Notes: generated by a model not told the origin, from the letters alone. A stretch of 64,000 nt of DNA from Ptychodera flava (GCF_041260155.1 NC_091937.1:6704626-6768625), one strand, 5' to 3'. Shown: positions 11,741 through 56,068, numbered from the stretch's first letter. Translations and numbers: made by a program.

Positions 11741-12288
11741 TTGTGCAAATCCTGTACCTACCATTCATCCAGTAAACAGACTAAGAGATTGTGAAAATTT
11801 AAGGAAGAATGCACATTTGGGACAGATATTTGGAGTCATAACATTTTATAATTCTTTTCTGATCTAGTGCTTGTAGGGACTCATTTTAAAGCTGTCAGAG
11901 CAAGATAAATTTTATTCAGTCTTATTTTTTTGAAAATCAAAAGTTTTATTTGTCCCCATAGACTACAATGATGGTGGCCATTTTGAATTTTAAATATCAG
12001 TAAATTTGAGGTACCGGTAATTTGATTATCTGGTACCAAAATTTGCCAAGTGACTCTTAATTTTTATTCATGACTTTGAACAAGAATGGTTAGATGTATC
12101 CTTGAGGAAAGTTTAAGCAAAGTCAAGTTAATCAATATAGAGGAGCATACTACCTTAACACTGGTGAATATTTTCCATTTTATCGCCGGCTTGCACTAAT
12201 TTGCAGAACAGAATGAGCAGAACGGAACAGAATGCAACGGATTAGCCACACTAGATAAAAAATTTGTTTCTTTCATTTCTTTTTTGTT

Positions 12289-14175
12289 AGTCCCCACGGA
12301 CACCGTCCGGGGGGACTTATAGGTTTGGTCATGTCCGTGCGTGCGTCCGTGCGTGCGTGCGTGCGTCCGTGCGTGCGTGTGTGCGTCCGTCCGTCCGTTC
12401 ACGCAGATATCTCAGAGATGCAGGAGCGATTTCATTCAAACTTGGTACAAGGATTACTTCATATGTCATACAGATGCACGTCGATTTGTTTTGTGATACG
12501 ATCCAATATGGCCGCCAGGCGGCCATTTTATTACGATTTTTTCATGTACAAAGCCATAACTCAGACATGTTTCAACCGATTTTATTCAAAGTTGGTACAA
12601 GGACATTGACCAATGTCATAGATATGCATGTCGATTTGTTTTGTGATACGATCCAATATGGCTGCCAGGCGGCCATTTTATTACGATTTTTTCATGTACA
12701 AAGCCATAACTCAGACATGTTTCAACTGAATTTATTCAAAGTTGGTACAAGGACATTGACCAATGTCATAGATATGCATGTCGATTTGTTTTGTGATACG
12801 ATCCAATATGGCTGCCAGGCGGCCATTTTATTACGATTTTTTCATGTACAAAGCACAATAACTCAGACATGTTTCAACTGAATTTATTCAAAGTTGGTAC
12901 AAGGACATTGACCAATGTCATAGATATGCACGTCACTTTGTTTTGTGATACGATCCAATATGGCTGCCAGGCGGCCATTTTATTACGATTTTTTCATGTA
13001 CAGAGCCATAAGTCAGACATGTTTCAACCGATTCAAAGTTGGTACAAGGACATTGACCACTGTAATAGATATGCATGTCAATTTGTTTTGTGATACGATC
13101 CAATATGGCTGCCGTGTGGCCATTTTGTTACAATTTTTTCATGTACAGAGCCATAACTCAAACATATCTCAACCGATTTTATTCAAAGTTGGTACAAGGA
13201 CATTGACCTATGTGATACATATGCACGTCAATTTGTTTTGTGATACAATCCAATATGGCCGCTAGGCAGCCATTTTATTATGATTTTGTCATGTACAGAG
13301 CCATAACTCAGACATGTTTCAACCGATTTTTTTCAAAGTTGTACAAGGATATTGAACAAGGATATTGACCAATGTCATAGATATGCATGTCAATTTGTTT
13401 GTGATATGATCCAATATGGCTGCCGTGTGGCCATTTTGTTACGATTTTTTCATGTACAGAGCCACAATACTCAGGCATATCTCAACCGATTTTATTCAAA
13501 GTTTGTACAATGACATTAACCTATGTCATACATATGTACGTCAATTTGTTTCATGATATGATCCAACATGGCTGCATGGCAGCCATTTTGTTACAATTTG
13601 TTCATGTCCTTTGGACACGTACGATTTTATTCACCAATTTTATTCAAACTTAGTGCAAGGACATTGACCTATGTCATACATATGCACATTGATTTGTTTT
13701 GTGATACAATCCAATATGGCCGCCGTGTGGCCATTTTTTTTCCCGATTTTTTTTCATGTCCGGAACCATAACTCAGACGTGTATCCAGCGAATTTATTCA
13801 AAGTTGGTACAAGGACATTGACTTATTTATACATATGTAATATATGTCGATTGGTTTCACGAGATGGTCCAATATGGCCACATGGTAGCAATTTTGTTAT
13901 GGTTGTTTCATGTCGAGAGCCATAACTCTGGCAAGTCTCAACTGATCCTATTCAAAGTTGGTACATGGACATTGACTTATGTAATACATATACGGTACAT
14001 GTTGATTTTTTAAACAGTAAGATCAAATATCGCTGCATGGCAGTGATTTTGTTACAATTTTCTAATGTACAGAGCCATAACTCAGACATGTTCCACAGTA
14101 TCATTCAAAGTTGGTACAAGGACATTGACCTATTTCACACATATGCTCGTCAATTTGTTTCACGTCATGTAGCAG
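12289..14175 (+). mobile_element. Satellite-bearing element A. Its terminus is AG + hairpin (tccccacggac acc gtccggggggac) + CTTAT + (GTGCGTCC)n, followed by ~11.5 tandem ~150-bp monomers.
   Basis: The terminus is homologous to the start of element B at 45209 and the monomers are homologous (~75%) to satellite-1 of element B. No matching distal terminus was found. A shared motif ggggactgtgtcatcaacgat sits at 14708 (and at 46917 in B). Confidence 0.55.
12440..14175. repeat. ~150-bp satellite array of ~11.5 units. Each monomer contains the GC-rich palindrome ATGGC(C/T)GCCAGGCGGCCAT.
   Basis: Period measured from recurring tcaaagttggtacaagg at 12588, 12738 and 12888. The ORF-track shows 50-aa periodic pseudo-peptides. 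Confidence 0.9.
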
Positions 14176-15189
14176 TAACATGTCAATTATTGAAGTTTTG
14201 TAAGTAGGCTGATATGTCAAGAAATACTGCACCAAATTTCATGAAACTTTGCACAGATGTTAAGCTCACATTGCTTTAACATTGAGAAAGACATTTATCA
14301 GTGTCATTTTAATTAATTTGTAATTGCATATGTAATGAACTTTCCTAATTAGAGTGATATAGCCACAAATTAATACAACGTCAAATTTGATGAAACTTGA
14401 TACAGATGTTGATCTCATAGTTTGTTGTAAATACTGCGTCAAACTTCATGAAATATGGTACCAGTGATAATCTATTAAGTATTAGGATTGTATGCAAAAA
14501 ATTTTTGCAACACCCTGTGATTAATTCCTAGTTGACTCATTTTATGAACTTTAGGATGGTGGCCTACATTGGTTTTATGTTTTCATCACCATGGAACTCA
14601 TTCTTGGCCATTGAGTGCCATCTGTATCAAAGTATTTTTATCACAGACCTAATTAATGAAGAGGACTCTATCCTCTCTGAGGACTTGTAATCAAAGTACC
14701 CATTAACAAGTGGGGACTGTGTCATCAACGATTTCATTTCTTTTTTGTTTTTTGTCCACTGGATTTTGGTGCTGAACAGGATTGAATTTTTGATCTAAAA
14801 TTGAAATTCGGATATAAATACAATATCATCATTTTTTCTACCCTAAAAGTAATGCATCTGTTTTCCAAAGTTTTCTGTTTTTCTCCCGTGATGAAAATCA
14901 TGAATAAGCTTAAGACTGATAAGAACTTTGTTGCATAAAACCACACTTCGGGAACCATGGTAGAACAAGTACCATGAATCAAACATTTCACATAATCAGG
15001 CAAGACTGCGGCTCCGGAGACTGCTGCTGGGAATGAATAAGACTACTGGACTGAAGCTTTAATTCAAATCTGAAACTACACCTGAATCCAAACCTTACCC
15101 TGGATATTGCATCTGATAGAGGACACCATAGCATATGAGATGGCGGGCTGTGTATCAGATATTCACCTCAATGGCATGGCGCCAGATTA

Positions 15190-15295: not shown

Positions 15296-16085
15296 ATATT
15301 GATACATTGCCACAGCATTGCTGACTACGTGTTCATTAGTGTGGATGCAACCCCTGACTTGCGTGATGATGGGGAGTCTCACAAACAGCCAGGCAGGGCA
15401 GGGAGTGGCAGAGCTAGGTACATCCACATTAGTTGTTGCTTAGGGTCTGCAGACTAAGGGGGAGCACCATTTTATTTTGGGGGGGGGGCACTGGAGAAAA
15501 TGGAGGTGTCGACAAATTTGTTTTCACCCGTTATGGCAGCATTTTTTTTTCAAAGTATGCTCACGCAACAAATTATTTTTTTACACAGCTGAAGGCAATG
15601 CAAAGTATTTCATTTGTTCTCAAAGTGAAGTACATGTGCATATTTTTTGCATGTCAAAGTTCATTCATGCAACCTGTAATCTATAATGGTGCAGAATTTT
15701 GCACATCTGACCCCTTCCCATGTTAGAAAATGTTGAAATATGCAGAGCTCAAAGCTGCATTTTCATGAACTCAAAACTAAATTGATTTCACAATTTTTTG
15801 TTTGATTAAAAAATTTCTTATGAAATGTCTCTGCATCCATTCTTCAAATTTTAAACAGAGCAAAAGTCAGAATTACAGTATACCATAATGGAGGGGTCAA
15901 AAATAATTTCGTAATTATGAATAAACTACACAAATGTAAAGAGATAAATTGAAATATACACTTTGTAATATGATTTCCACCATAGGCAGCAGCTCAAATA
16001 CTAAAATCAGTTCTAAACATGCATTTTTAGCTCACATTTGGTTATACCAATGTGAGTTTATCGTATAAGCTGAAGTCGATGGCGT

Positions 16086-16127
16086 CTGTATGTATGTGTG
16101 TATGTATGTATGTATGTATGTACGTAT
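16086..16127. repeat. (TGTATGTA)n microsatellite
   Basis: Direct read. Confidence 0.9.
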
Positions 16128-16399
16128 AGTATGTCCGTCAACATCAAAAACACGCAAACCGCTGCACGTTTCAGCTTGGTATTTGGTGTGTGGATGCATC
16201 CTGGGCTATAGATGGGATTTTGTTCAAATGAAGTCTGCATTGCCAAATTATGCAAATGAGCTTACAAAATGTGAAAATGGTCAAGAATTAATATCTCGAG
16301 AACCGCTGTTTTGATTGCTTTGAAAATTTGTGTGCAAGTACCTTAGGTGAACCTTATACAGTTTTATGAATATTGTGAAGATATCCTTAATTTTGTATT

Positions 16400-16900
16400 T
16401 TTACTGAATTTTTTGGTGATTTTTCTCATTTTCATTAAAAATTATTCTTCTCTGAAACCGCCAGCCCAATCGCTCTCAAATTTGGGTTGGATCTTTGCAA
16501 GGGTGTTACTCTTCTAATTTGTTGAAATTATGACAAAATTGGGAAAATTACTATTTTGGAGCAATTTTGTCATTTTTGGTTGAAAACTCTTAAACAGTAT
16601 TTTCTTTTTAAAGCTCCTGAACAGACAGCTTTTATATTTGGTACACAGACGTACAGAGATGACGATAGTTAGATATGTGGAAATTGTCCTGAAATATACA
16701 AATTTGTATTTTTAAGACAATATTGTCATTTTTGGTCAAGAAAACTTGTTCTCAAAATTACTTGTGTGATAGCTTTGTAATTTGGTATAAAGTCCCGAGG
16801 GATGTTATTAGATAAATTTTCTGCTCAAGTGTTGGGAAATTTGTATATTTTAGGTAATTTTCTCAGTTTCTGATCTTAAATGACCCACACCAACCCAGGA
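16400..16900 (-). repeat. Two to three units of the satellite-2 family (the same family as 47290-48620) in reverse orientation
   Basis: The reverse complement of 16670-16730 (ttgaccaaaaatgacaatattgtcttaaaaatacaaatttgtatatttcaggacaat) matches 48181-48245 (ttgaccaaaaatggcaaaaattgccttaaaaatgtaaatttgcatatttctgcacaat). Confidence 0.6.
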
Positions 16901-18658
16901 TATGTTGTGAGACAGTTTTGAAGGCTGTGAACATAATTTTGTCTTTGGTATCAATTTGTAGGAAAATTTGAACCAGAAAACAAAGCTGAGGTGACTTTTT
17001 CATTGCAGACCAATTTTTGCAACTTATCTATGTAAGACATACAAGAACTGATGAGAAATTTGGATCCAGGATAATTCCAGGTGTTGTAATCACCGCCCAC
17101 AGTGGAAGGCATTTCACCATCTGTAACTAACTTAAGTGCTGTTTACATTAGAATGATAACACTCACATTGTATTTACAACCACAAGGTTATAATTCATTT
17201 CCTGTCATCTGGTGTTATGTAATACCAAGGAATGGAACATTTGATATTCAGGAGGGGTAGGGTCTAGAGGATTGATGAGGTAGCATTACTTTTTTTACCA
17301 GATCCTCTTGTACATTTTTTTACCCACTCCCACCTTTTCTTTTCATCAAACCTTCTCTGTCTATTTTTTGTTGTTGATATTTGTCTATGTATGTAGGATC
17401 TGCTTGTCCCATTGCTATAGAAGTTGATATGCATGTTCCTAAAGATGACCTCAGTACCTAAGTTGGAGACCTTATTTGCTTTTGTCATTCTTGTTTTTCC
17501 TGGTTTAAATATTCTCGAATGGACCAATTCAAACTGAATGTGAGCACACTGTCCTTGACGGTATTTTTGGTATTTCCAGCACCCCACATCACATTTTTTT
17601 AACCTTCATCTCTGGGAAGCAGTAACATTTTTTTTCTCACTTTGGGGTTTTGCTGCAAATTATTTTTTATTCTCCAAGGGAGGCGGACAGTTTTCCACAC
17701 AATCCTACAGCCCCTACCTCAGAAGTCAAATGTTTCTCCCCTCAGCATGCTCAGTAAAAAAAGGGGGGCTCAAATCAACCTATTGATTGGCCAATCAACA
17801 AGGTCAAAGGACATCACTTGTACACACATACAAAAGGACATCACACATACACAGTCGACAGACGATCAGTGCAGTAACTTGAAACCATACGGTCGTTTTG
17901 CAATTTTAGCCATTCTTTTGTGATCAGTTTCTTAAGACAGGATGTGTTTACACCCCTAATTTTGTTGTATGCCGTACATATGCAATTTTTGTTTGAAAAC
18001 TAAGTTGAGCTATTGCGATCGTACAAAACAGAGTGCATAATTACATATTGGCCATAGACACGCCCACTGTGGTAGTGCCCTCTATTAGGCACAATTCTCA
18101 GGGTAAGATTTAAATTCAGATGTAGCAGTTACAGCTCTGAAGTTACAGCTGTTAAGGTGCCTCCCTTGTAGAGTTGGATAGTTTATTTAAATCCAAATTT
18201 CTGTTTCAGATCTGAAATTCCATTCTGTTCTGCTCCAAAATCCAGTGGGCTAAAAAACATGGACTCTTAATAATAAGAAACTTATTTTTTATCTGGTGTG
18301 GCTATTCCGTTCCTGGCCACAAATTAGTGTAAGCCCTTGTCGCCACCATTCACTCTGAGATTGTCAATTGTTTTTGTCGCTCAGTTTCTGTCAGTGGACA
18401 GCTATGCAGATCCTAACCATACTTACATTGTATGACCAAAGAATTGAGAGATGGCCTCCCAGTCTAAGATCACTATTCCATCGGGCCTGTAGTAGCATAA
18501 GACTACAGGTCCTAAAGCATTGGCTGGATGATTTGCTTATTACTGGTTTAGTCACAGTGAATCTCTACACAGGGAAATCGGGAAACAGTTAAAAGTTTGA
18601 AGACTCATCAGATGCATTTATGACAATTTATACATAAGCTTATTTTATTCTATTGCAG

Positions 18659-19827
18659 GGATAATGGAAGAGAAAAGCAAAGGTATGCTATCAGAAGTGT
18701 CAACAATGTCAGCTTCTATAGCTGGAGAGGCATTGAAACCAAGAAGGGCACTAGGAATGGCACCATCAACAGAATCTCTGGCAAAGACAAAAAAACCACC
18801 TCCAGTAGCACATCCAGCAGGTATGCCACCGCCCCCACCACCACCGCCACCACCTAGACCAGTAAGTGGTGCACCAGTGCCACCACTAGGAACAGGGGCA
18901 CCAGTACCACCTGCAGCGGCACCTCCACTAGGCATGCCACCACCACCACCACCACCTCCAGCAACATATGCTCTACCAGTGCCACCACCACCAGGGGCAT
19001 CAGTACCTCCTCCAGTGGCACATTCAGCAGGCATGCCACCACCACCACCTCCATCAGTAAGTGGTGCACCAGTGCCACTGCCATCAGGAAGAGGAGCACA
19101 AGTACCAATAGCAGCAGGATTTCCACAAGAAATGCCACTACATGAACGACTACAATCAATACCATGTCGATCAGCATATGCTAAACCAGTGCCACCACCA
19201 CCATCAGGAAGTGTTGGGCCATTGCCACTTCACCAGTCTCAACAAAGATTAATGAGAGGCGGAATACCACAAGCACGTCGAAAATTATCAGTTGAAATGG
19301 TATATCCAGCAACCATACTGCCACCAGTACCACCACCATCATCATCATCACAAAGAAAATATGCTGCACCGTCACCCCCACCTCTTCCAAAGGCACGAAT
19401 TCAAGCCCAGTCAGGCAAGCCATCATCACCACCTCCAGCTAGAGCAGAACTTCAAAAATCTTTGCCACTACAAGGACCACCTTCGGTAAAACGAACACCA
19501 CCACCACCACCACAACAACAACAACAAGAACAACAACAACAACGGGCACAACCAGCTATACCAATACAGCCAGCACAGGTATTATCTAGGGGAGTACAAC
19601 CAGCTGTATCCCAGCCTTTGCTCCATAAGGCAACTGCAGAATCAGAAGCACCAAGAATGAGAAGTGCAGTAAAGATTGGTGCAGCCATGCCTGAATGGGA
19701 AGAAGAAATACCATTGCAGATGGAAATTCCAATGAAGGCTGTGGAAGGGGCTTTTGATGCAAAATTACAACTGCAAACGTTGAGACAAGGAGATTCAATT
19801 GTATATATAGGAGTACCAAAGACAAAG
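18659..19827 (+). CDS. Large proline-rich exon (389 codons) resembling a formin FH1 or WASP-family polyproline region: repeated GMPPPPPPPPPP / GAPVPP blocks and a polyQ (QQQQQEQQQQ)
   Basis: Acceptor ttctattgcag|. The exon starts with GG, which completes the phase-1 codon from the acidic exons as GGG. There is an uninterrupted 1169-nt frame and an AAG|gtaaaa donor ending in phase 0. Confidence 0.7.
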
Positions 19828-19986
19828 GTAAAATTTTATCTTGCAACAATCTTGTCTGTTCATGTTCTGAATATGGATTTCATCATGACACCATTTTAAT
19901 AGCATTAAAGCTCATAATGTTATTAGATCTGTATTGATAACAACATGGCTTTTGCTGTTGGATGGCAAGATTTCTTCTTACTCTTT

Positions 19987-23200: not shown

Positions 23201-23661
23201 AATTGCAATATTTTATGGTATTTCATTCCTATCTGATCAAAATGTACAAACGGCAACATACCCACTTGGTCAAAATGTTATAACTGAAAGGCGAAAAAGT
23301 TTGTGCATATTGTAATCATAGTAATATATCTTTTAGCAAATAAATTGGCACAAGTCTGAAAGTTCATAGCAATAGAAATATTATCTGGTTTCAATTTTTG
23401 TCAAATATGCATACAGTATATTGGTATTCATCACAATCTTATTTGATGAGTACTTTAAGATTCATATCATGATTCATTTTTCAAAATCACACAATCTTAC
23501 TTGAGCTGATAACTAAGCATGCAGTGGTTGAAGCCAATGATATTTCAGTACTTGTGTTCAATGTAGTAGAGTGTGTGCATTCAAATTGACCAGTCAGTCG
23601 TCCTAATTATTGTTGATGAATGTCTGTCTGTTTTATGCCATACACATGTTGTCCTGGACAG

Positions 23662-25727
23662 GAAGTGGAAGACAAGAGTGCATCAAGATTGCAGACACAG
23701 AGTCAAAGTTACCGTGGAATAGTCAGAGGAAGTAGCTTTGGAGATATTGCTGCATCAGAGTCACAGAAACAACAAAAGCCATTCACATTTGTGCAAGAGA
23801 AGGCAACAGTTGCCGACAGTGGCGTACCAACACACCGTATCCTCAAGGACGCTTCAAAAGCTGTGGAAGCTGATTTGTCAACAACTGATTCAAAACAAAG
23901 TTTTGGCTTTGCTTCATCAGTACAGCCAACAACAAAGTTTGGAGGAACAGTTGGTTTTGGTGCTTCATCAGTGCAAACAACAGTAAAGCTTGGAGGACCT
24001 GGTGGCTCTGCTGCAGCGGAAAAACCCACAGCAATGTTTGGAGGAACCGATGGCTTTGGTACTGCTGCTGCAGCTACTGCAGCTGCTAAAGCGCAACCCA
24101 CAGCAATGTTTGGAGGAACCGATGGCTTTGGTACTGCTGCTGCAGCTACTGCAGCTGCTAAAGCGCAACCCGCAGCAATGTTTGGAGGAACTGGTGGCTT
24201 TGGTACTGCTACTGCAGCTACTATCGCGCAACCTGCAGCAATGTTTGGCGGAATGGGTGGTTTTAGTACTGCTACTGCAGCTACTACAGGGCAACCCACA
24301 GCAATGTTTGGAGGAACTGGTGGCTTTGGTACTGCTACCGCAGCTATGACAGCGCAACCCGCAGCAATGTTTGGAGGAACTGGTGGCTTTGGTACTGCTA
24401 CTGCAGCTACTACAGCGCAACCCACAGCAATGTTTGGAGGAACTGGTGGCTTTGGTACTGCTACTGCAGCTACTACAGCGCAACCCACAGCAATGTTTGG
24501 AGGAACTGGTGGCTTTGGTACTGCTACTGCAGCTACTACAGCGCAACCCACAGCAATGTTTGGAGGAACTGGTGGCTTTGGTACTGCTACTGCAGGTACT
24601 ACAGTGCAATCCACAGCAATGTTTGGAGGAACTGGTAGCTTTGGTACTGCTACTGCAGGGCAACAAGCAGCAATGTTTGGCGGAATGGGTGGTTTTAGTA
24701 CTGCTCCTGCAGGGCAACAGACAGCAACATTTGGAGGAACTGGTGGTTTTGGTACTGCTACTGCAGCTACCACAGACCAACCCACAGCAAAATTTGGAGG
24801 AACTGCAGGCTCTGCTGTTTCAGTGCAACCAACATTTAGTTTTTTAGGAACTAGTATGCTTAACAGATTCAAGTCAACTCCGCAACCTGGGGGCGTTATC
24901 GCAAGTACGCAAGACCAGGCTGATGGTTTTATTAGAAGTTTATTTGACACTTCACAAGAAGAAAAATCTTCACCAAAATATGGTTTTTTTGGCTCTCAAC
25001 AAGTCAAAGCAAGTTCATCAGATCAGAAACCATACCTATCTGGCCAATCTAAAGACTTGGAAATTTCATCTGCAGACACATCTGGGTTATTTGACTCTCC
25101 ATTAGTTGAAGCCATCTCATCTGCTCATCAATGGCAAGGAAAAGGTGGAAGCGCTCCCAGTCAAGATAGTTTTATGCTTCTTCCAGGTTTCAATTACTCA
25201 ACTGCAGAGCCTGGTAAAAAAGTGGCTGGATTGAGCTCTGATTCAACTGGTCAAGACATGGGTTGGAGTTACACCAGTTCTAGCATGAACAGGACGAAAA
25301 GGTGACAGGGTCGACATTTAGTTCACAGAGTCAAGAATCAAAGAGAAAAGAAACTGATTCAGGTGTCTTTGGATCAAGTCAAGACCAAAGTGGGACAGGG
25401 TCGACATTTAGTTTTGGTTCACAGAGTCAAGAATCAAAGAGAATAGAACCTGATTCTGGTTTCTTTTTCTCAAGTCAATATCAAAGTGTGAGCTCTTCAT
25501 ATGGTTTAGGTTCATCAACTCAGAGCATGACAGAATACAAACTTGAGCAAGAAGTCCCTAAATATGAAGACAAATCTAGCACACTTTCAATGCAAGATGT
25601 GCTTTGCTATGATGTGAGACTTGATGAAGCACTGGACATTGAAGACTCAAAGCAAAATGAGAGACACATTAGAGAAACCTTGACACCACCACCATGTAGT
25701 GTATCGCCTATAACACTTCCTACAATG
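23662..25727 (+). CDS. FG-repeat exon. It has ~14 tandem 21-aa units (TAMFGGTGGFGTATAATTAQP), then an S/T-rich tail with GSTFSFGSQSQESKR repeats. A +1 frame break near 25284-25305 separates frame 1 (stop at 25303-25305) from frame 2.
   Basis: Acceptor cctggacag| in phase 0, continuous with the 19827 donor, and donor ATG|gtatgt at 25728 in phase 0 relative to frame 2. The exon length is not a multiple of 3, so the exon as it stands carries a +1 frameshift (or an unseen intron). Confidence 0.55.
23990..24800 (+). repeat. Coding 63-bp tandem repeat (~13 units, very homogeneous) that encodes the FG repeats
   Basis: ggaggaactggtggctttggtactgctactgcagctactacagcgcaacccacagcaatgttt repeats nearly exactly. 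Confidence 0.9.
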
Positions 25728-30178: not shown

Positions 30179-30711
30179 GTGAGATGTGAAGTCTATTCTT
30201 AATTTTCACTTGTACATTGGGATTATGAAATTAAATTTCAAAAGAGCTGTTGATAAAAATACTTCTGCAGGTTAAATACAATATGCATCTTTCGCAACAA
30301 TTTAAACAAACCTAAGTCACCCGTACTATTACCTGTATGCCAAAAATTCAAAACAATTGGACAAGCAGTTGCAGAGAAAATTTTTTTGAACAAAAAGGAA
30401 AAATTGCCTCCAAAAATACAATTATGCAAATTTTACTACAATTTGAACAAACTTGACTCAAGTCGCCCCTAGCAACCTGCACAACCATTCAAACCCATCA
30501 GAAAAGTGGTTACAGAGCAGTGGCTTCAAATGCAAAAAGCTGACAGAAGGACAACACACAAGATGACGACAGACTATCATTAATATTGATAAGCTCAGCT
30601 CCGTCTAAAAAGTGGTATTTATTAATGCTGAAATTATATACTTAATCATTGTTTGAACTGACAGTGGCAATTTTGAAATTTCTTAAAAAAATGTTTCATT
30701 TTTCTCTTTAG

Positions 30712-38510: not shown

Positions 38511-39147
38511 TCAAGAATTTTTCAAAAACATGCTATACCAATCTGCATATCTATGACTGTCACGCGTTCCATGACTGGCAATCATGCGTCTGCGTGGTTT
38601 TGATGCCAATGTTTTGCATCTTTGGGTTAAAAATGCACAAAAAGTCTTATTTTCATGGATTAGACAGATTTTCCTTAGCAACTGTTGCCTAGATACTTGA
38701 ATTCTTCGATACTTCCTTAACTACCCTCAGTTCAATGGCTTTGCTCAACATTAAAATACACCATCTTCTTACATTGCTTCACAAGTCTCCCTTATTGTGG
38801 ATTGAGCTTTCTGTTAAGTGAAAAAAGGAAATGAAAATAAATAACTGATTTCAAAATATGGCCGACAAGTCATTGACAATGACACAGTCCCCACTTGAAA
38901 TTGTAAATTAGTCGGTCTGAGTAACTATTGAAGTCAATATGATGTAAATGGAAAAAGATATGAGGGTACCAAAGACCTGTTTGTGATTGATGCCCTACCA
39001 CCCTAATTGTGAAAGGTCTATAAATGTGTCAACCAGTAATTAATTTACAGGATGTTGCTAAATGCTTTTGCTTGTACCAGCTTTCATAACACTGTGAGAT
39101 AATCATTTGTACCAAGTTTCATAAAACTTGATGCAATGCTTCTGGAC

Positions 39148-39410
39148 ATAACCCTTTTCCTGCCAGACAGTATCACTTCCCCATCAGCCAAGTCAGTAAA
39201 AAGCGGTATTGAGCCAAAACATGACGTATTTTCACCCACTTGGCTTGGTCTGTTATAGCATCTTTAGTCCAAATAAATCAAATTTACAGTATTTATGTTT
39301 TCAACAGCTTTCAAATGTACAGTATTATGTTAAAATACACCATATGGAATATATTGTGTTTCCATCTTGACATGGTGATGAAATATGGACTTGGCAGGAA
39401 AAGGGTTAAA
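39148..39410. mobile_element. MITE-2 (~260 bp) with TIR TAACCCTTTTCCTGCCAG / CTGGCAGGAAAAGGGTTA and a subterminal CCAAGTCAGTAAAAAGCGGTA repeat
   Basis: Termini read directly at 39148-39166 and 39391-39410. Confidence 0.7.
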
Positions 39411-40265
39411 TATTCAAATTAGAAATTAATTGAATTGCTACTGCTTAATGTCATTGTACACTATTACTGCTGTCAACATCTGTACCAAGTATCATCAAAA
39501 TTGAGTATTTCTTGACATATTTTACACTCCCAAAGCCCTGTGTGACCTACATTGGTAAAAGCTCATCAAATTTGTGCATTCTCTCTAGGAAACAACTCTT
39601 TTTTTTTCAAAAATCACTGATTGTGCTCATTAGCACTAATTATGCATGCTACACCTAAAACAATGCATATGTATGCCATGGTGTACTTTCCTTATACCAA
39701 GTATGAAAGGAATTGACTCAGGCATGTGTGATTATCTGTGTGGACTGACAGACAGGCGGAGCTAAATTCATAAGTCCCCTGACTAATAACACTGTGCTTC
39801 CATTTGATGAGAACAGAACTACATTCAACAGAAAATAACGTATGAAAAGTAACAGACAACAAAAGTTTCAGAGATGAAATTATTTGGCAAAACCATGGTG
39901 ATAGAGGGACTATGGCAAAACACGAGATATTTGATCAAGAAAATAACTTCTAAAGTATAAAACTTTTCTTCCTTTCCACAGTAGCAGTAATGTCCCCTCA
40001 CCTTTTTGGCAGTTGTTATCAAAGATTTGTACTATATGATTTGATATCTTAATGTTACAAATATCTACATTGTTGAATTATTTTTCTTCCAGTACAAACA
40101 TTGTGTGATGCCTAAATATCTGTAATGGGTATCCAATCATTGTAGGGAGATTTGTGTTGATGTATCACATAAAGTTTTATCCATGAATTTTCATACTAGA
40201 AGACTATTCAAGACTTAACATCATTCCATTAGAAAGTATTTGGTCACATGATACCATCATGAAAT

Positions 40266-41944
40266 GGCCTAATTTTAACCCTTTTCCTGCCAAGCGCCCT
40301 TGTCCGTTATCCTGCCAAGTCAGTAGAAAACCGCCCCATAATATGTGCCTGCAAAAGATTGGCTCTCCTGCATGTTACCCTGCCAGGCATTTTGGCAGAA
40401 ATCGCCCATTTTCAGGGTAGTTTTAGCCGTACTTATACGTGTTAGACTTCGATAATTTCTACATGCCTGTTGACAGGGGAAGGAGCAGCTCATGGGTTAC
40501 TGCAGAAAAAAATTGAGGTCACCGGCTTTGTTTGCCCCTGGGAGTGCGTCATTTTATTGCCGTTTCATGTTTATCATTTCTGAAATAAACTCCTTCAGTA
40601 TTGCGCACGTCCGCTAGGCACAAACATCACCTCAGTCGTCTGTTAGTCAGAGACCCTGGGGGTCGTGCTAGGGGTGCGGCAGCACCGGCAAACCTGTCCT
40701 GTTTCCCCAGGGTAGGGTCAATTGAATACGTACCTTCAACGACTTGGCAGTGTAGCACAAAAACTACGTTTTTGCCGTTGTATTAACGACATGGCTGAGC
40801 CATTGAAGCACAGCTCCACGTAGTTTAGCCAGCTCATTTGGGAGTTGGCTTACGAGTGTTACCGTTCATTACCGACTTAATCGAGTGGTCCTCAGTCAGG
40901 TACGGGTTTGTACCTACATGGATTGGGCTGCAGCTAACCAGTGATAACCAGTCACTACACCCAAGTCGTCAGTCTCACTTTTGCGATGCATGGGTACAAC
41001 GCAATATGCTTCCATTGTTCTAGCCATCGACGTGTCCACATGCCTGGCAGCCATATTGTACTGCTAGCTGGTTTGCATAACAAAAGCAGTCCCTGCTAAG
41101 TGCAGACGGTATCCCCGTACCATTGACCTTATGTCCCCTTTTGAATTCTCTGTACGCAAACAGCGTACGTAGTTACCATGCGTCGGCAAGAGGATACGTT
41201 TGCCTGCAAACCAGAGCCAATACTTCGGACGATGGAATAAATAAAAAATCCAAAGCTACGTCCATTGAATGGCACGGCCAAGGCGGTGAAGGACGTTGCC
41301 TGGCTTGAACTTGCAGAGCTGAAGCCCAGCTTAGTACGTCGGACACCAGTTTGTAATGGTATTTCCGAGTCGTTCACATCCGTTCCATCGGAGGAACAAG
41401 TCGAGCCGTCCCGTCAAAAATGCGTTCTCATTTTCAGTCATGCACAACTGAATAAGTGACTTTCGTCTCGCACCATCGGCACCATCTGCCAAGTCGTTTA
41501 CAAGAGGTAGCCTTCTAGATTAGCATTGCCGAGTTGGTCTGTTCGGCAGCAATCTCTATAGTGCCAGGCAGCCAAGTACGTCCAACTCCGCCAGAAAACG
41601 TCACCATGCTATCCTGCCAAGTCCGCTAAAAAGCGGTAAAAAAAACCCAGCCCCCCTCGGGTGTGGGGGACTGGCGGACAGGTTTCTGCACCTTTCCCTG
41701 TCTATCGACTCCCTGCGAACCCATTTCGAGGGGAAAAGGCGTTCCTTGTCAGAAAACCTCTCCTCGGATGACCCCTAAACGCACAGGGTATAGCAAAACG
41801 TAGTGCCGTCGACTTGGCAGGAAAGGGGGTACCCAAAAAGGGCCCGATTTCCACCGGGTTGGTAGAATAACGGTCACCAGTGCTTAGATTCTGGCTACAC
41901 CGAATTTCAAGCGGATTTTCACCGACTTGGCAGGAAAAGGGTTT
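40266..41944. mobile_element. 1.7-kb element of the same TIR family as MITE-2 (TAACCCTTTTCCTGCCAAG ... CTTGGCAGGAAAAGGGTTTA). It has several subterminal CCTGCCAAGTC..AAAAGCGGTA repeats in both orientations and a GC-rich ~1.1-kb core (40600-41700).
   Basis: Termini at 40266 and 41925-41944. Subterminal repeats at 40305, 41604, 41808 and 41918. The core has only short ORFs (up to 85 aa) and nothing that looks like a transposase. Confidence 0.65.
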
Positions 41945-43065: not shown

Positions 43066-44020
43066 ATTTTTTTTTTTTAAGCAAAGTAGAATTTATTCAG
43101 GAATAGTGACTTTGATGGTAGATATGTTTCCATCAACAAGTCCATAATTTTTTTGAAAAAGATAAATTTATTTCAACACCGTCACTAACAAAACAAGTCT
43201 ACATAACTGTGAATGCATTAAAATTACAATGCGTCTTGTCTGAAAAAACAAATAATTAGCTGTTTAATTGCAAAGATCATCATATGAATGCATTCAGGGT
43301 GCATTCTTCTCCTTCACGTCTTACAAGGCTTGAAAACTTTGTGATAAAATCCTCAGTTTTGTTAATCATCTTATTAGTGAAATATAATGTATTCATCCAT
43401 GAAGAGAGATAACATTTTAATTGCATGACATAGGATTGAAGGGAAACTTTAATCCCATCAAAAGTAACCGAATTTCGAATATTCCAAACTGTGTATTTTA
43501 CAACGGAAGTAATACAGTAAATAATGTCAGATGTTGCATTGTTATCGTTTTCGATTCCTCCAATTGCTAATCTTTTGATATTGATATTATTATCAAAGTT
43601 ATGTTTTCTGACAAAGAAAGAAATGCATTTCTGCCGGATTTCTTTAACATATTAACACTCAAATAAGATGTGTTCCAGTGTTTTTTCTTGGCCACAAATA
43701 TGGCATTTCCCATCACTTAAATTGAAAGTTTTGGCCAAGCTTCCTGTGACTAGGCCTCGATGGAAAATCTTCCAATTTAAATCATTTACTGAATTGCTGA
43801 CAATTCCTGTTGAATTAAGACGGCTGAATAAAGTAGCTTTGTAATTGTCAGTGAGATTTAGATTCTCAGCCCATTTTTGACCAATCTGATAAGTCCAGAA
43901 TCTCATAGTTAGTTGTGGAAAGCGCCCTCTATCAACCAAACATGGCAAGTTTGCTTTAATGAACTCCACTGCAGTGCTGGTTTTGAATCTCTCTATTTGA
44001 CTTTTAAAACAAGGGTACAC
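43066..44020 (-). mobile_element. 5'-truncated non-LTR retrotransposon (CR1/L2-like) 3' portion: the ORF2 C-terminus, a ~570-bp 3'UTR, and a poly(A) tail seen as T13 at 43066-43078 on the plus strand
   Basis: The minus-strand ORF 43652-44020 ends ...NLSDGKCHICGQEKTLEHILFEC, the C-x2-C...E-T-L-E-H-x-L-F-x-C tail motif typical of CR1/L2-clade ORF2 proteins. Confidence 0.6.
43652..44020 (-). CDS. LINE ORF2 C-terminal fragment (122 aa; the RT domain is absent because of truncation)
   Basis: As above. Confidence 0.55.
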   Translation of the reverse strand: MYPCFKSQIERFKTSTAVEFIKANLPCLVDRGRFPQLTMRFWTYQIGQKWAENLNLTDNYKATLFSRLNSTGIVSNSVNDLNWKIFHRGLVTGSLAKTFNLSDGKCHICGQEKTLEHILFEC

Positions 44021-45299
44021 AGTACTGTTTGATAGAGTACTTATTTTTATTTTTTATTTCACTTTTACAGCATCAACAGTCTAGTGTGTACTTTAAAGAA
44101 TCATATAATTAGCCAAAACTACAGTTTTTGAAATTGCTTCTCACAAACACTCATATTTCACCCATAAAGCCGACATATGAGAACAGATATTACATAATCA
44201 AAACTTCAGAAAACCAGTTCTTGAGGTCATAAAAGTAAATAAATACATGAATCATGAATACGTGAATAACTAAAATAATAAATAAATACTGCAATTAATT
44301 GTTGTGCCATTTCTACTTTTGCCGATATTTGAATGCTTTTGCACGGTGTAAAAAAACCACAAATACTTCCATGCTTGATTTTCATTCCTTTATTTCAGAA
44401 CTTTTGTACAGCCTCTTTCCTGGTAACTGTGAATTCAATCATGGTGTTGTTGTACTATAGGTTGTACCTTGCATCAACCTGAGTACAGCGCAACAGCTTT
44501 ATCATTTAGAGCAACTTGTTTCACTTGGAACACAAGTCTCCTCGATGATCATCCGGGTCGCATAACCAGCAGCTGTCTCAGACTTCCTCGGTTACGGTGT
44601 AACTAACGAGAGGTCCTAGACTTATACACAGCCATGTAAAGAGGCTGGAACATTTGGTCAAAATGAAAAGAGAATGTTCAGACTTTAAACCAAAAACTTC
44701 AGGAAGTTTACAGTATAACAGCTGTAAACCGATACTTTTTCATCACTTTTTGTTCTGCATTTTTTTCACATTTCCTCGTTAGATCTACTCAAAAAAGTAT
44801 ATTTATTACTACCATATATTCTCCGAGTAAACGATGTCTGTACATGTAATGTACATTATTGCCCTAGACAGTGAACTGAACTGATCAATAATCAGTGTGG
44901 ATATACAGTTAGCCTTGGTTTACGTCAGTGATTTGTGAAATAAAGTCATTTCACCAAGTCGCAACGCATTAATATAACTAATATGATTGCAATAGGATCC
45001 TGCATTATCTTCATTGAGTTGTACAGAGCGTGGCACTGAGCATTTACGAGGTCACATCAAACACTCTGGGTAGTATATTTGCGCCTATTTAGGTCGACTG
45101 AATGCAATGAATGGTAAGTTTCTCATGATAACTCCAATACGTAGCAGCCAGAAAAAACAACCTTGATTACTCTACTTCATTGCATTCGCTGAATTATTTT
45201 TTAGTCCCCGCGGACGAAGTCCGGCGGGGACTTATAGATTGGGTCCCGTCTGTGCGTCCGTCCGTCCGTCCGTCCGTCCGTCCGTCCGTCCGTCATCAA

Positions 45300-46640
45300 C
45301 AGTTTCTCAGACACTGCTGAACCAATTTTGTTCAAACTTGGCACAAAGGCATAGCCCTATGACCTACAGATGCACGTCGATTTATTTTGTGATACGATCG
45401 AATTTGGCCGCGAGGCGGCCATTTTGTTGCGATTTTTCATGTCTTTGGACCATAACTCAGACATCCTTGAGCAGATTATGTTCAAACTTGGCACAAAGGC
45501 ATAACACTATGGCTTTCATATCCATGTCAAATAATTTTGCGATATAATCCAATATGGGCGCGAGGCGGCCATTTTGTTGCATTTTTCATGTCTTTGGACC
45601 ATAACTCAGACATCCTTGAACAGATTCTGTTCAAACTTGGCACAAAGGCATAACACTATGGCCTACATGTGCATGTCAAATTAGTTTGCGATACGATCCA
45701 ATATGGCCGCGAGGCGGCCATTTTGTTTGCGATTTTTCGTGTCTTAATTGAACCATAACTTAAACATCCTCGAACTGATTCTGTTCAAACTTGGCACAAA
45801 GGCATAACACTATGGCCTACACATGCATGTCAAATTATATTGCGATACGATCCAATATGGTTGCGAGGCGGCCATTTTGTTGCGATTTTTCATGTCTATG
45901 GACCATAACTCAGACATTCTTGAACCGATTTTGTTCAAATTTGGCACAAAAGCAAACAGTATGCCCTTCATATGAACACCAATTTATTTTGTGAAATGAT
46001 CCAATATGGCTGACAGGTGGCCATTTTTTTGCGATTTTTTCATGTCTTTGAACCGTAACTCAAACATCCTTGAACCGATTTTGTTCAAACTTGGCACAAA
46101 GGCAAAGCACGTACTATGGCATGCATATGCATGTATCAATTAACCTTGCGATAGGATCCAATATGGCTGCAGAACTGCCATTTTGTTGGAATTTTGCATG
46201 TCTTTGAAGCATAATTCAAGGTCATTACACCCATTTTGTCCAAACTTGGCACAAAGATCAAGCACTATGGCATACATGTCAATTTACTTCGTGACTATGT
46301 TCCAATATGGCTGCCAGATTGTAAATTTTTTCCAATATCTCTTAATCATATGCAAATATTCCTAAACCAATGTTGTTGAGACTTGGTACAAAGATAAAGT
46401 ACTATGGCATACATATGCATGTCTACTAATTTTGTGCTATGATCCATATGGTCAAGAGACAGCCATTTGATTTCAATTTTGGTGTGATACTTTTATGTCT
46501 TTGAAACATAAACATAGGTCACTGTCCCTCGATGGACTGATTTTGTTCAAACGTGATACGAAGATAAAATACTATGGCTGCATTCTTGTGCACATTAAAT
46601 TGTTTCATTATATGATCCGAAATGGCTGATTACAACAACA
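45300..46640. repeat. Satellite-1 array: ~150-bp monomers in ~9 copies that degrade distally, each with the palindrome ATGGCCGCGAGGCGGCCAT
   Basis: Recurring caaacttggcacaaaggcata at 45335, 45483, 45634 and 45788. Homologous to the array at 12440-14175. Confidence 0.9.
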
Positions 46641-47289
46641 TACCCAATCCCATAGCATTTCGAAAATTCCACCAAACCATGTGTATAGTATGTGCCGTCA
46701 TGACACTAGAGGCAGTGAGGGCATCGTTATGTGTGATGTAATCAAAAGTTCCTTCAGTGGTCATTACCGGCAGAGATGAGTCATTTATTACACGTTCCTC
46801 AGATTACTTTATTATGCAAGTCACAGGCCTGATGCACCCATTGCATCAATGTCATTCCACAGCGACCTAGACCACAGCTACCTAGACACCAATGATTATA
46901 ACAAAATGGACAAGCGGGGACTGTGTCATCAACGATGACTTGTTTATTCACAGACTTGTACCAAGTCTATTGCAAGATATATATCAAATTTTGGTTTATT
47001 CTCAACTCATCATAAGGAAAACTTTTTGTAACAATAAGGATACAAATTGAATCTTTTGTTTGATTTCTGGGATTGATTGAATAGGCGGCGTGCCTTTGAT
47101 GACATTTAGTTTGTGTCTGAAAAAAGTCTGTGGCTGCGTTTATTTTGTTGCGCTGCACAAAAGAGTCAGCGCTGACTCCATTTTCGCTGTAACATTGACC
47201 AGATATGGAACAAAATTACTAAACAAGCGACCTAGCGGCCGATATAGCTCCGCTGTGTTTATGTACAGAATAACTATTTTTGACACATG

Positions 47290-48620
47290 TTGATGAAGAA
47301 GGTGGAAATCTTTGATAACTCAATGCAGTGGCCAGAAAAATGTGGCTAAAATAAGCTGCAAAAATACAAAATTGAAGATTTCATCATACTTTGAATATAT
47401 CACATCCGATCATCCCTAAGAACATGTCAACCAAAGCTATCTGATGAGTAGTTTTTTGAGAATAAAATATTCTGACCAAAAATGGCAACAATTGCCCCCC
47501 AAAAATAAAAATTGCAGATTTCATCATAATTTCAAAATATCACACTTAGTTATACCAAATTTCAAAGCTGTTAGACCAGTACTTTTTGAGAAACGCATTT
47601 TTTGACCAAAAATGGGAAAAATTGCCCCAAAAATTCAAAATTGCAGATGTCATCATTATTTCAATAAATATCATTTAGTTCATCTATGGAAACCTGTATA
47701 CCAAATTTCAAAGCTATCAGATAAGTAGTTTTGGAAATACACATTTTTTGACCAAAAATGGCAAAAATTGCCCCAAAAATACAAAATTACAGATTTCATC
47801 AGAAATTCAATATATATTACTAAGCTTATCTGTAGAAACCTGTATACCAAATTTCAAAGCTATCAGACCAGTACTTTTTGAGAAACACATTTTTTGACCA
47901 AAAATGGCAAAAATTGCCCCAAAAATACAAAATTGCAGATTTCATCATTATTTCGATAAATATCATTTAGTTCATCTGTAGAAACCTCTATACCAAATTT
48001 CAAAGCTATCAGATGAGTAGTTTTGGAAGTACACATTTTTTGACCAAAAATGGCAAAAATTGCCCCAAAAATACAAAATTACAGATTTCATCAGAAATTC
48101 AATATATTACTTAGTTCATCTATAGAAACCTGTATACCAAATTTCAAAACTATCAGACCAGTACTTTTTGAGAAATACATTTTTTGACCAAAAATGGCAA
48201 AAATTGCCTTAAAAATGTAAATTTGCATATTTCTGCACAATTTGAACAAATCTGAAATAGATCATCCCTAGGGACATATGTACCAAATATAAAAGCTATC
48301 TGACCAGTAGTTTTGAAGAAGAAGATTTTTAAAGATTTTTTTACCAAAAATGACAAAAATTGCCTTAAAATACAAATATGCAAATTTCACCACCATTTGA
48401 ACAAATCTGATTTAAGTCACCCTAAGCAAACTGCATATCAAATTCAAAGCAATCGAACGAGCGGTTTCAGAGAAGAAGATTTTTTTACCAAAAACACAAA
48501 AAAATGCCCCAAAAATACAAATATGCAAATATCACCATGATTTGAACAAACTGAAGTAAGGTCACCCCAAGTGAACTGCATATAAAATTTCAAAGCAATT
48601 GGACTTGTGGTTTTAGAGGA
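47290..48620. repeat. Satellite-2 array: ~130-150-bp monomers in ~9-10 copies, core ttttgaccaaaaatggcaaaaattgccccaaaaatacaaaattgcagatttcatca
   Basis: Direct read. Unrelated to satellite-1. The same family occurs inverted at 16400-16900. Confidence 0.9.
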
Positions 48621-48633
48621 GAAGGCAATTGTT

Positions 48634-48690
48634 GACGGACGACGGACGACGGACGACGGACGCCGGACGACGGACGCCGGACGACGACGG
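48634..48690. repeat. (GACGGAC/GCCGGAC)n simple repeat, the reverse complement of the (GTCCGTCC)n at 45248-45292
   Basis: Direct read. Confidence 0.9.
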
Positions 48691-49189
48691 ATAATCAACC
48701 TATTTGATAAGCTCCGCGTCGCTGACAGCGGAGCTAAAAAATGAAAGTTGCCGCTACTTATCCTTTTGAGTCAATCACTGTATCAGCAACTCTGTTCTTG
48801 TTCTTTCTTCATAACAATGTGAATTCAAAAATGCGGTGAAACAATATTGTCTGATTCTCTCCAGTGAGATATATATTTACTCAGCATTCAGTTTTATAAA
48901 ATTATAGGATGTGATTTTTTAACATGCATTCCCAGAGAATAAAAGAAGCTACGATGCATATTTATTATCTGGCCTTAGGAACCCAGAGAATGGTACAATT
49001 CCTGATGGCTGCACCATGTGTGCAAGGAGTACAAATTCATTGGCAATTTGTTTTTGTTTTATGTCTGAACAAGTCATGCAGACATTGCAATATTGAAAAT
49101 TAATGATATATGGGACAATACACTCTTACCACTCCCAGGTTGAAATGTATGGACCACTTTATACAAAGTGAGACCACAGAGTGAAAGGA

Positions 49190-55789: not shown

Positions 55790-56068
<279 letters not shown>

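Follow-up and report, generated by a model that had tools for sequence, protein, structure and literature searches.

Two tail-to-tail non-autonomous Helentrons very probably make up a 3.5-kb satellite-bearing block in Ptychodera flava

Results

We analyzed a 64,000-nucleotide stretch of Ptychodera flava DNA (GCF_041260155.1 NC_091937.1:6704626-6768625; hereafter the window). The block at 45203-48741 very probably consists of two independent non-autonomous Helentrons (HINEs, of the design of the bivalve elements pearl, DTC84, and Cg_HINE) lying tail to tail, ~280 bp apart. Element A (45203-46943, + strand) and element B (48735 back to ~47221, - strand) each have their own 5′ and 3′ end. In both, the modules follow one order: a 5′ subterminal inverted repeat (subTIR) with an adjacent inverted repeat, forming a hairpin; CTTAT; a GTCC/ACGG-type microsatellite; GTCAACA; an array of satellite-like ~150-bp monomers, all oriented alike; non-repetitive sequence; a 3′ subTIR that is the complement of the 5′ subTIR; a short palindrome; and CTTGT. 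The initial annotation had described a single 3.5-kb composite with inverted termini. The shared, inverted order it reported at the two ends is real, as T-run, AG, GC hairpin, CTTAT, GTCC/ACGG-type microsatellite, and GTCAACA are all present. However, both hairpin/microsatellite "termini" are 5′ (left-flank) modules, not the left and right ends of one element. The internal 3′ ends at 46910-46943 (A) and 47221-47256 (B) argue against the composite, and the fact that each 5′ end has a 3′ partner of its own bears out a caveat in the same annotation, that two elements might be juxtaposed.

Element A opens with AG (45203-45204), right after a T-run (45197-45202) that belongs to a T-rich stretch, TGAATTATTTTTT (45190-45202, + strand). 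This stretch is either a T-rich host target or a short 5′ leader. The 5′ hairpin (45203-45232, + strand), which had been recognized but placed from 45209, comprises the subTIR AGTCCCCGCGGAC (45203-45215) and the complementary inverted repeat GTCCGGCGGGGACT (45219-45232). Folded as DNA, it reached -14.5 kcal/mol (z = -5.3), which none of 200 shuffles matched, and it is conserved in a second element of the window (copy C) and in two metagenome contigs (L009 and L011; see below). It is followed by CTTATAG, a (GTCC)n microsatellite of period 4 and ~12 units detected by tandem-repeat search (45246-45294, + strand), and GTCATCAAC. A microsatellite occupies the same left-flank position in B, copies C and E, and contigs L009 and L010.

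The array of element A (sat-1; 45306-46626, + strand) contains ~8.8 copies of a 150-bp monomer. TRF called 45306-46277 with 82% matches, and degenerate copies continue to ~46626, the array decaying toward its 3′ side; its identity to the array of copy C is 71%. A non-repetitive internal segment (46627-46909, + strand), which has no second copy within the window, lies inside the pair of flanks and runs from the array to the right flank (46910-46943, + strand). This flank comprises an outer stem formed by ACAAG/CTTGT, the 3′ subTIR GCGGGGACT (46914-46922), and the palindrome GTCATCaacGATGAC (46925-46939), and the element ends in ...GACTTGT. The subTIR pair is perfect over 9 nt (27 of 2000 shuffles were as good). 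Copies C and D and contig L010 conserve the right flank.

Element B is read on the - strand. Its 5′ hairpin, AGCTCCGCTGTCAGCGACGCGGAGCT (48735 down to 48710), follows a T-run (48741 down to 48736; an A-run on the + strand) and folds at -11.2 kcal/mol (z = -5.5). After the hairpin come, in + strand reading, ATAAG, the microsatellite, and GTTGAC. The microsatellite (48634-48686, - strand) is (GACGGAC)n on the + strand, with a mix of ACGG and ACGA that corresponds to GTCC/GTCG in element sense. The array (sat-2; 47336-48624, - strand; 30% GC) contains ~8.8 monomers. While the 150-bp units proposed for sat-1 were recovered, the period of sat-2 is 146 bp, not ~140 bp. TRF splits sat-2 into 47551-48314 and 48332-48624, with matches of 83% at 146 bp and 89% at 292 bp and a 145 bp x 2 call; the higher-order period is 292 bp (dimeric). 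The three monomers nearest the microsatellite are of a variant type, and arrays related to sat-2 occur at 16278-16850, 30274-30520, and 7141-7312.

A short internal segment (47257-47335, - strand) connects sat-2 to the right flank of B (47221-47256, - strand). Here we found the 3′ subTIR ACAGCGGAGCT (the reverse complement of 47246-47256), a palindrome made imperfect by one G.T, CGGCCgctaGGTCG (47228-47241), and CTTGT (47223-47227), a layout that parallels the right flanks of A, D, and L010. The agctccgctgt that had been noticed in the middle of the block is at 47246-47256 and, rather than being a partial copy of the hairpin, is this 3′ subTIR, an 11-nt perfect inverted match to the 5′ end of B that 2 of 2000 shuffles equaled. 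As placed, the end comes from one copy; the true 3′ end of B could extend up to ~90 bp further, near a 16-bp perfect palindrome, GAGTCAGCGCTGACTC (47167-47182). This palindrome falls within the ~280-bp spacer between the two 3′ ends (46944-47220), which is single copy within the window and presumed to be host DNA. The non-repetitive middle of the block was correctly reported, although its length is ~710 bp instead of ~650 bp.

Comparison of copies bears on the boundaries. The T-run and AG mark the point from which A, C, L009, and L011 are alike, and the likeness of A, D, and L010 stops after GACTTGT. T is found on both sides of A and B, on the 5′ side of L009 and L011, and on the 3′ side of L010; beyond this T-richness, we detected no target-site duplication at A or B. 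The 5′ and 3′ repeats covary, with ...CCCCGC accompanied by GCGGGG... in A and ...CCCCAC by GTGGGG... in C and L011. In the 3′ palindrome, GTCATC/GATGAC (A) versus GTCATT/AATGAC (D and L010) is a compensatory C:G to T:A change. The hairpins of A, B, C, and E had z = -4.5 to -7.9 (0 of 200 shuffles as good), and a degenerate hairpin plus CTTAT pattern matched two window sites where 0.13 were expected. Separately, the motif T[TG][CA]ATT is present upstream of the 5′ end in five of seven copies.

The features by which HINEs are recognized were found as follows. Paired short subterminal inverted repeats lie near each end of A, B, and C, and an inverted repeat a few bases 3′ of the 5′ subTIR gives a hairpin in A, B, C, and E. 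The 5′ flank carries a microsatellite, followed by central tandem repeats in fixed orientation. A palindrome follows the 3′ subTIR; these palindromes have stems of only 5-6 bp and are individually non-significant by folding alone (z = -0.6 to -1.6). The elements are non-coding, as the ORFs that pass through the arrays are mechanical only and their frames differ between A and C. Searching the 64-kb window for an autonomous partner, we found no long ORF and no Rep/helicase domain. A Pfam scan of 20 window ORFs gave only a sub-threshold zf-RVT match and a sub-threshold HTH match (the latter in an array ORF), and Rfam and tRNA scans of the window gave no matches. Protein searches with two promising window ORFs, and look-ups of the two longest ORFs for identical proteins, likewise came back empty.

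The 64-kb window contains six or more elements of this design, in both orientations, which together cover ~12% of it. Copy C (12289-14731, + strand) is a complete A-family element with a hairpin, (CGTG/GTCC)n, a 150-bp array, second-type repeats, the 3′ subTIR GTGGGGACT, and a truncated palindrome. Its subTIR pair is perfect over 9 nt (39 of 2000 shuffles as good), and it splits a host repeat for which a paralogous uninterrupted site exists at 18204-18311. Copy D (38865-39790, - strand) is a 5′-truncated A-family element with the right flank AAGTGGGGACTGTGTCATTGTCAATGACTTGT. Copy E (16029-16870, + strand) is related to B and consists of T-run and AG, a hairpin (AGCTCACATTTGG..CCAATGTGAG; fold z = -7.9), (TGTA)n, GTCCGTCAACA, and sat-2-like monomers; a search for its 3′ subTIR found none above chance. 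Copy F (30270-30611, - strand), a B-family element, retains a deleted hairpin (TTTTTAG-ACGGAGCTGAGCTTATCAA), an eroded microsatellite, and ~1.5 sat-2-like monomers, its left flank being a deleted version of that of B. Copy C, and no other copy, is flanked by a perfect 18-nt direct repeat, TTTCATTTCTTTTTTGTT, which is not expected for Helentrons.

By searching with the translation of the copy C array, we found five related contigs in ENA marine metagenomes, including Tara Oceans. Wherever a flank is present, the order is left flank, array, right flank in one orientation: L009 has left flank and array, L010 array and right flank, and L011 left flank, array, and the start of the right flank, with the contig stopping inside its 3′ subTIR. 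L012 and L013 contain arrays only. The right-flank pattern matched metagenome contigs at eight loci, all unrelated bacterial chance matches; the left-flank pattern gave four chance matches, without the hairpin, in prokaryotic genomes; and two pattern scans of viral contigs gave no matches.

The two arrays had been called unrelated. Overall they are dissimilar, as the best rotation of the sat-1 and sat-2 consensus monomers scored 13 compared with a shuffle mean of 8.5 (sd 2.0). They are not wholly so: a 19-nt box, oriented alike relative to the element, occurs in both and is the only likeness between them. Taking all arrays together, 29 of the 30 occurrences of the box motif run in element sense.

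Discussion

The anatomy of these elements matches that of Cg_HINE from Crassostrea gigas, which is Helitron-N*_CGi in Repbase (Vojvoda Zeljko et al., 2020, PMC7492417). Cg_HINE has a left flank with a 5′ subTIR, a complementary inverted repeat, and a GTCY/GTCC/GTCK microsatellite, followed by a variable spacer, 2-29 satellite-like monomers (140-180 bp) that share one orientation, and a right flank with a 3′ subTIR and palindrome. It inserts at T-rich sites and is densely interspersed in both orientations, and families with related flanks bear unrelated repeats ("group 2") (PMC7492417). Some elements have two consecutive arrays, as do copies C and D. Unlike in Cg_HINE, the A-family subTIR is perfect over 9 nt rather than 11-12, which is also below the usually quoted 11-13 nt, and copy C has its 18-nt flanking repeat, whereas no duplication is reported for Cg_HINE. 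The likeness to the 11 published Cg_HINE families is one of described anatomy, and k-mer searches for element sequence in published supplementary material gave no matches.

Pearl (CvA/CvE/CvG, Crassostrea virginica) and DTC84 (Donax trunculus, PMC3879986) likewise consist of a flank, one to five ~160-bp core repeats, a tetranucleotide microsatellite, and a second flank. They resemble our elements in having AA/TT at the ends, regions of reduced variability inside the monomers, and, as in B, ordered variant monomers beside the microsatellite; the microsatellite of DTC84 is the ACGG/ACGA mix seen on the + strand of B (PMC3879986). They differ in having been described on the opposite strand, as MITEs with an AA duplication. 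Compared by description rather than sequence, our arrays are longer, at ~9 monomers, and their units measure 146-150 bp. DINE-1 and other HINEs (Thomas et al., 2014, PMC4067079) share the subTIRs, an inverted repeat beside the 5′ subTIR, the microsatellite, central repeats, a 3′ stem-loop, and non-coding content; their preferred insertion sites are TT or T-rich, with a variable number of flanking T. DINE-1, which shared termini tie to autonomous Helentrons, differs in its conserved core block and 13-bp subTIRs (PMC4067079). Canonical Helitrons also belong to the rolling-circle class and have a 3′ hairpin; they make no target duplication and lack subterminal inverted repeats. We rejected this class for A and B: canonical elements have 5′-TC and 3′-CTRR ends and insert between A and T, whereas here we see (T)nAGTCCCC... 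and ...GACTTGT, with T on either side.

Could the elements instead be strict MITEs, cut-and-paste elements whose inverted repeats are recognized by a DDE transposase and whose insertion creates a target-site duplication? We regard this as very unlikely. The initial annotation had suggested Helitron/Helentron-like or MITE-like carriers of tandem repeats; the assignment to non-autonomous Helentron-type carriers held up. The elements are small and non-coding, with short inverted repeats near both ends, and a putative AA (= TT) duplication was described for DTC84 and pearl (PMC3879986). However, MITEs have terminal inverted repeats and a fixed-length duplication in every copy. Here the repeats are subterminal and sit in an asymmetric context (hairpin at the 5′ end only, palindrome at the 3′ end only), and A and B are flanked by T-rich sequence but by no duplication. 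The 18-nt direct repeat that flanks C could be taken as a duplication, but 18 nt is not of transposase type and it occurs in that copy alone. Moreover, the family was reclassified as Helentron-derived from termini shared with autonomous Helentrons (PMC4067079).

We give scarcely any weight to a single 3.5-kb composite in which inverted hairpin/microsatellite termini enclose both arrays as cargo. The same ordered modules do occur, inverted, at both ends, with a T-run on each outer side of the block. Yet each 5′ module has its own complementary 3′ subTIR and palindrome in the middle, and a rolling-circle element needs a 5′ end and a 3′ end that lie on the same strand. Other copies also separate the two supposed ends: in C and L011 an A-type 5′ end is joined by a directly oriented A-type 3′ end, and there is no B-type end (the L011 contig ends within the 3′ subTIR), while B-family 5′ ends stand alone at E and F, with no A-type end near F. 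The annotation had itself named failure of the two ends to co-occur as the finding that would count against it, and this is what the small sample of C, L011, and F shows. Finally, that the block is immobile, its tandem arrays generated locally and lying by chance beside microsatellites and GC hairpins, is barely credible: no transposition event was directly observed for A or B, but the modules are found, in their set order, at six unrelated places in the window and in both orientations, as well as in independent metagenome contigs. The dispersed copies have sharp boundaries in common, and copy C interrupts a host repeat found intact elsewhere.

Within the reading of A and B as two Helentrons, the 18-nt repeat at C, TTTCATT upstream of 5′ ends, and the box in otherwise unrelated monomers are small unexplained points and only leads. 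One explanation, which we consider unlikely, is that the 18-nt repeat is an element-borne 5′ leader re-copied after the 3′ end (a fossil 3′-5′ junction from a circular or concatemeric rolling-circle intermediate) and not a target duplication; together with the 19-nt box, it would then suggest that the Helentron enzyme has cis-acting sites both within the element as now defined and upstream of it. The TTTCATT leader also precedes B and L011, and the uninterrupted paralogue has unrelated sequence where the 18-nt repeat sits, both of which fit this explanation. The 3′ palindrome of copy C is cut short beside the repeat. Since, to our knowledge, the biochemistry of Helentron transposition has not yet been worked out, the repeat, the upstream motif, and the box could merit a genome-wide check.

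By analogy with the family, A and B would be mobilized in trans by a Helentron Rep/helicase/endonuclease protein. Transposition would presumably be single-strand rolling-circle ("peel-and-paste") into T-rich sites, with the 5′ hairpin/subTIR and the 3′ subTIR/palindrome as putative recognition and termination signals. The internal arrays may vary in length through slippage or unequal exchange and would be spread around the genome as passengers. Since non-coding rolling-circle transposons with their own arrays are a known kind, the 3.5-kb block is an ordinary feature of such genomes. Annotations should mask it as a pair of HINE-type Helentron derivatives, not as a new composite transposon or two free-standing satellites. 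The block is a further example of HINEs scattering short satellite-like arrays across gene-bearing regions.

Two tail-to-tail elements at 45203-48741

Modules of similar design lie at both ends of the interval 45203-48741, in what we call elements A (left) and B (right). In A, direct reading of the plus strand gives a T-run (45197-45202) and then AG, a GC hairpin formed by AGTCCCCGCGGAC (45203-45215) and GTCCGGCGGGGACT (45219-45232), and CTTATAG leading into a (GTCC)n microsatellite (45246-45294) that is followed by GTCATCAAC. The end that carries B is inverted: in plus-strand coordinates it has an outer A-run (48736-48741), a hairpin in the opposite orientation to that of A (48710-48735), and ATAAG, a (GACGGAC)n microsatellite equivalent to ACGG/ACGA (48634-48686) and GTTGAC. 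Compared with shuffled sequence, folding of the A and B hairpins gave z = -5.3 and -5.5 (0/200 shuffles as good), and a degenerate pattern of hairpin plus CTTAT occurs at 2 sites in the window versus 0.13 expected. The motif pairs of these left flanks (hairpin, CTTAT, microsatellite) are AGTCCCCRC..GGGGACTTAT and AGCTCCGCTGT..GCGGAGCTTAT; the right flanks, which consist of a subterminal inverted repeat (subTIR), a palindrome and CTTGT, are marked by AAGYGGGGACTRTGTCAT..ATGACTTGT and ACAGCGGAGCT. Between the hairpin ends are two tandem arrays, sat-1 with a 150-bp period (45306-46277 by TRF, with degenerate monomers to ~46626) and sat-2 with a 146-bp period (47336-48624), separated by ~710 bp of non-repetitive DNA.

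The initial annotation had read this interval as one composite with inverted termini. All the features it listed were found, with small corrections to coordinates and periods only, but a single composite is not supported, since both hairpin ends have their own inverted partner in the middle DNA. In A, AGTCCCCGC at 45203 has a perfect inverted partner, GCGGGGACT, at 46914-46922; a match of this length was reached in 27/2000 shuffles of the downstream DNA, and the subTIR of the A family is perfect over 9 nt only. In B, on the minus strand, AGCTCCGCTGT has a perfect inverted partner, ACAGCGGAGCT, the reverse complement of 47246-47256 (match length reached in 2/2000 shuffles). What was noticed earlier in the middle as a partial further hairpin copy is this 3′ inverted repeat of B.

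The right flanks of A and B have a parallel layout, as each internal inverted repeat is followed by a small palindrome (GTCATCaacGATGAC at 46925-46939, plus strand, in A; the imperfect CGGCCgctaGGTCG at 47228-47241, minus strand, in B) and then CTTGT. The 3′ palindromes are so short that none reaches significance by itself. From the internal partners and the parallel right flanks, we assign 45203-46943 on the plus strand to A and 48735 down to ~47221 on the minus strand to B. The 3′ boundary of B is drawn from a single copy and might lie further on, in the direction of the 16-bp palindrome that occupies 47167-47182. The two 3′ ends point toward each other, with ~280 bp between them, and no copy, in what is a small sample, pairs an A-type with a B-type end, a result that the initial annotation had itself named as grounds for rejecting the composite. 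We conclude that the block consists of two ordinary HINE-type elements (HINEs are non-autonomous Helentron derivatives), tail to tail by chance of location.

Assignment to the HINE class

HINEs are defined by subTIRs, an inverted repeat beside the 5′ subTIR, a microsatellite, central repeats, and a 3′ stem-loop, and insert at T-rich sites, where the number of flanking T varies, with no target duplication (Thomas et al., 2014; PMC4067079). In Cg_HINE of the Pacific oyster (PMC7492417), the left flank contains a 5′ subTIR, an inverted repeat, and a GTCY/GTCC/GTCK microsatellite, the satellite-like monomers are 140-180 bp in fixed orientation, and the right flank is a 3′ subTIR plus palindrome. 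Copies are densely scattered in both orientations, related flanks enclose unrelated repeats, and some copies carry two consecutive arrays. A and B have the anatomy of HINEs, which derive from Helentron rolling-circle transposons. As described, Cg_HINE is a closer anatomical match than the general definition. The older accounts of pearl and of DTC84 (PMC3879986) show the same plan, described on the opposite strand, with the ACGG/ACGA microsatellite mixture of B. Since neither a Rep/helicase gene nor any other long ORF was found within the 64-kb window, we infer from the family that a Helentron enzyme would move A and B in trans. The elements are additional members of this known type, or possibly catalogued already.

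Further copies and element boundaries

Self-comparison of the window and inspection revealed four further copies of the same design. Copy C (12289-14731, plus strand) is a complete member of the A family, and D (~39790 down to 38865, minus strand) is a 5′-truncated one. In E (16029 to ~16870, plus strand), the hairpin differs, the module order is the same, and the monomers resemble sat-2; F (30611 down to ~30270, minus strand) has a B-type left flank with a deletion. HINE-type elements make up ~12% of the sequence in this region. A lone sat-2-like fragment of ~1-1.5 monomers is also present at 7141-7312, and neither kind of flank can be recognised around it.

In alignments, the copies are similar from the T-run and AG onward and no farther than GACTTGT; the sequence upstream and downstream of these limits is unrelated. 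The 5′ and 3′ inverted repeats covary (G:C in A, A:T in C and in metagenome contig L011), as do both palindrome arms (GTCATC/GATGAC in A versus GTCATT/AATGAC in D and contig L010), and the right flank is bracketed by an outer stem, ACAAG/CTTGT. These three kinds of covariation argue that the parts of the element belong together.

Candidate insertion and repeat motifs

C splits a host repeat that has an uninterrupted paralogue at 18204-18311 (minus strand). The 18-mer TTTCATTTCTTTTTTGTT stands on both sides of C as a direct repeat without mismatch (12271-12288 and 14732-14749). The 3′ palindrome of C is cut short. Helentrons are reported to insert without target duplication, and the repeat is unexpected for them. 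Since the paralogue matches on either side at ~85% identity but carries 16 nt of unrelated sequence in place of the 18-mer, the latter may not be host DNA. Directly upstream of the T-run and AG, TTTCATT or its relaxed form T[TG][CA]ATT occurs in five of seven independent 5′ flanks (45190-45202; 48736-48748, minus strand; 12271-12288; 16020-16028; L011 16-22), which could mean that such sites are preferred as targets or that the element has a 5′ leader so far overlooked.

Sat-1 and sat-2 have no overall similarity. A 19-nt box, (G/A)TTCAAA(C/G)TTGG(C/T)ACAA(A/G)G, occurs once per monomer in sat-2, in E, and in C and D in the units of the second type, monomer families that are otherwise unrelated. 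Of its 30 occurrences within elements, 29 are in the element sense, and its score in the sat-2 consensus was equalled in 14/5000 shuffles. The arrays given for the box (consensus ~TTCAAAnTTGGyACAArG) are 45306-46626, 47336-48624, 12427-14160, 14188-14420, 16600-16800, and 38996-39525. We treat 18-mer, upstream motif, and box as leads only; they may represent target preference, an unrecognised leader, or constrained repeat sites. Doubled periods of 303, 292, and 302 bp scored at least as well as the monomer period in the arrays at 45306-46277, 47551-48315, and 12427-14160, respectively. In sat-2, matches were 89% with the dimer versus 83% with the monomer period, which suggests a higher-order unit of two monomers.

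Other features of the window

Nested in copy D is a 260-bp MITE-like insert (39149-39408) whose terminal inverted repeats, GGCAGGAAAAGGGTTA, match perfectly over 16 nt. This terminus, found at 5 sites versus 0.02 expected, also occurs at 40276-40291, 41816-41831, and 41929-41944, and flanks a GC-rich stretch at 40.3-41.9 kb. A 561-aa open frame (23620-25302, plus strand) contains about eleven 21-residue AMFGGTGGFGTATAA-type repeats derived from a 63-bp tandem repeat, and a 432-aa frame (18601-19896, plus strand) is proline-rich. Neither had a Pfam hit; a homologue search with the former and an exact-sequence look-up with the 411-aa ATG-start version of the latter gave no match. A fragment of the C-terminus of a non-LTR retrotransposon reverse transcriptase lies at 43283-44053 (minus strand; zf-RVT E = 3e-4, under the Pfam cut-off), and long (TA)n microsatellites, the largest with 74 units, are at 1059-1204, 2535-2597, and 55790-56053.

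Relatives in marine metagenomes

A protein search with the translated array of C recovered five short ENA marine-metagenome contigs (L009-L013), one from Tara Oceans (PRJEB4352), with arrays 70-78% identical to that of C. L009 leads from a T-run and hairpin through CTTATAGATTGGGT and (CCGT)n into an array. In L010, four monomers lie between a microsatellite and a right flank. L011, of 702 bp, carries a left flank, ~600 bp of arrays, and, at its end, the start of a right flank (ACAAGTGGGGACT). In L011 and L012, monomers alternate with a second, unrelated segment of ~100 bp. Judged by these sequence matches, the family of elements described here also occurs in marine metagenome assemblies.
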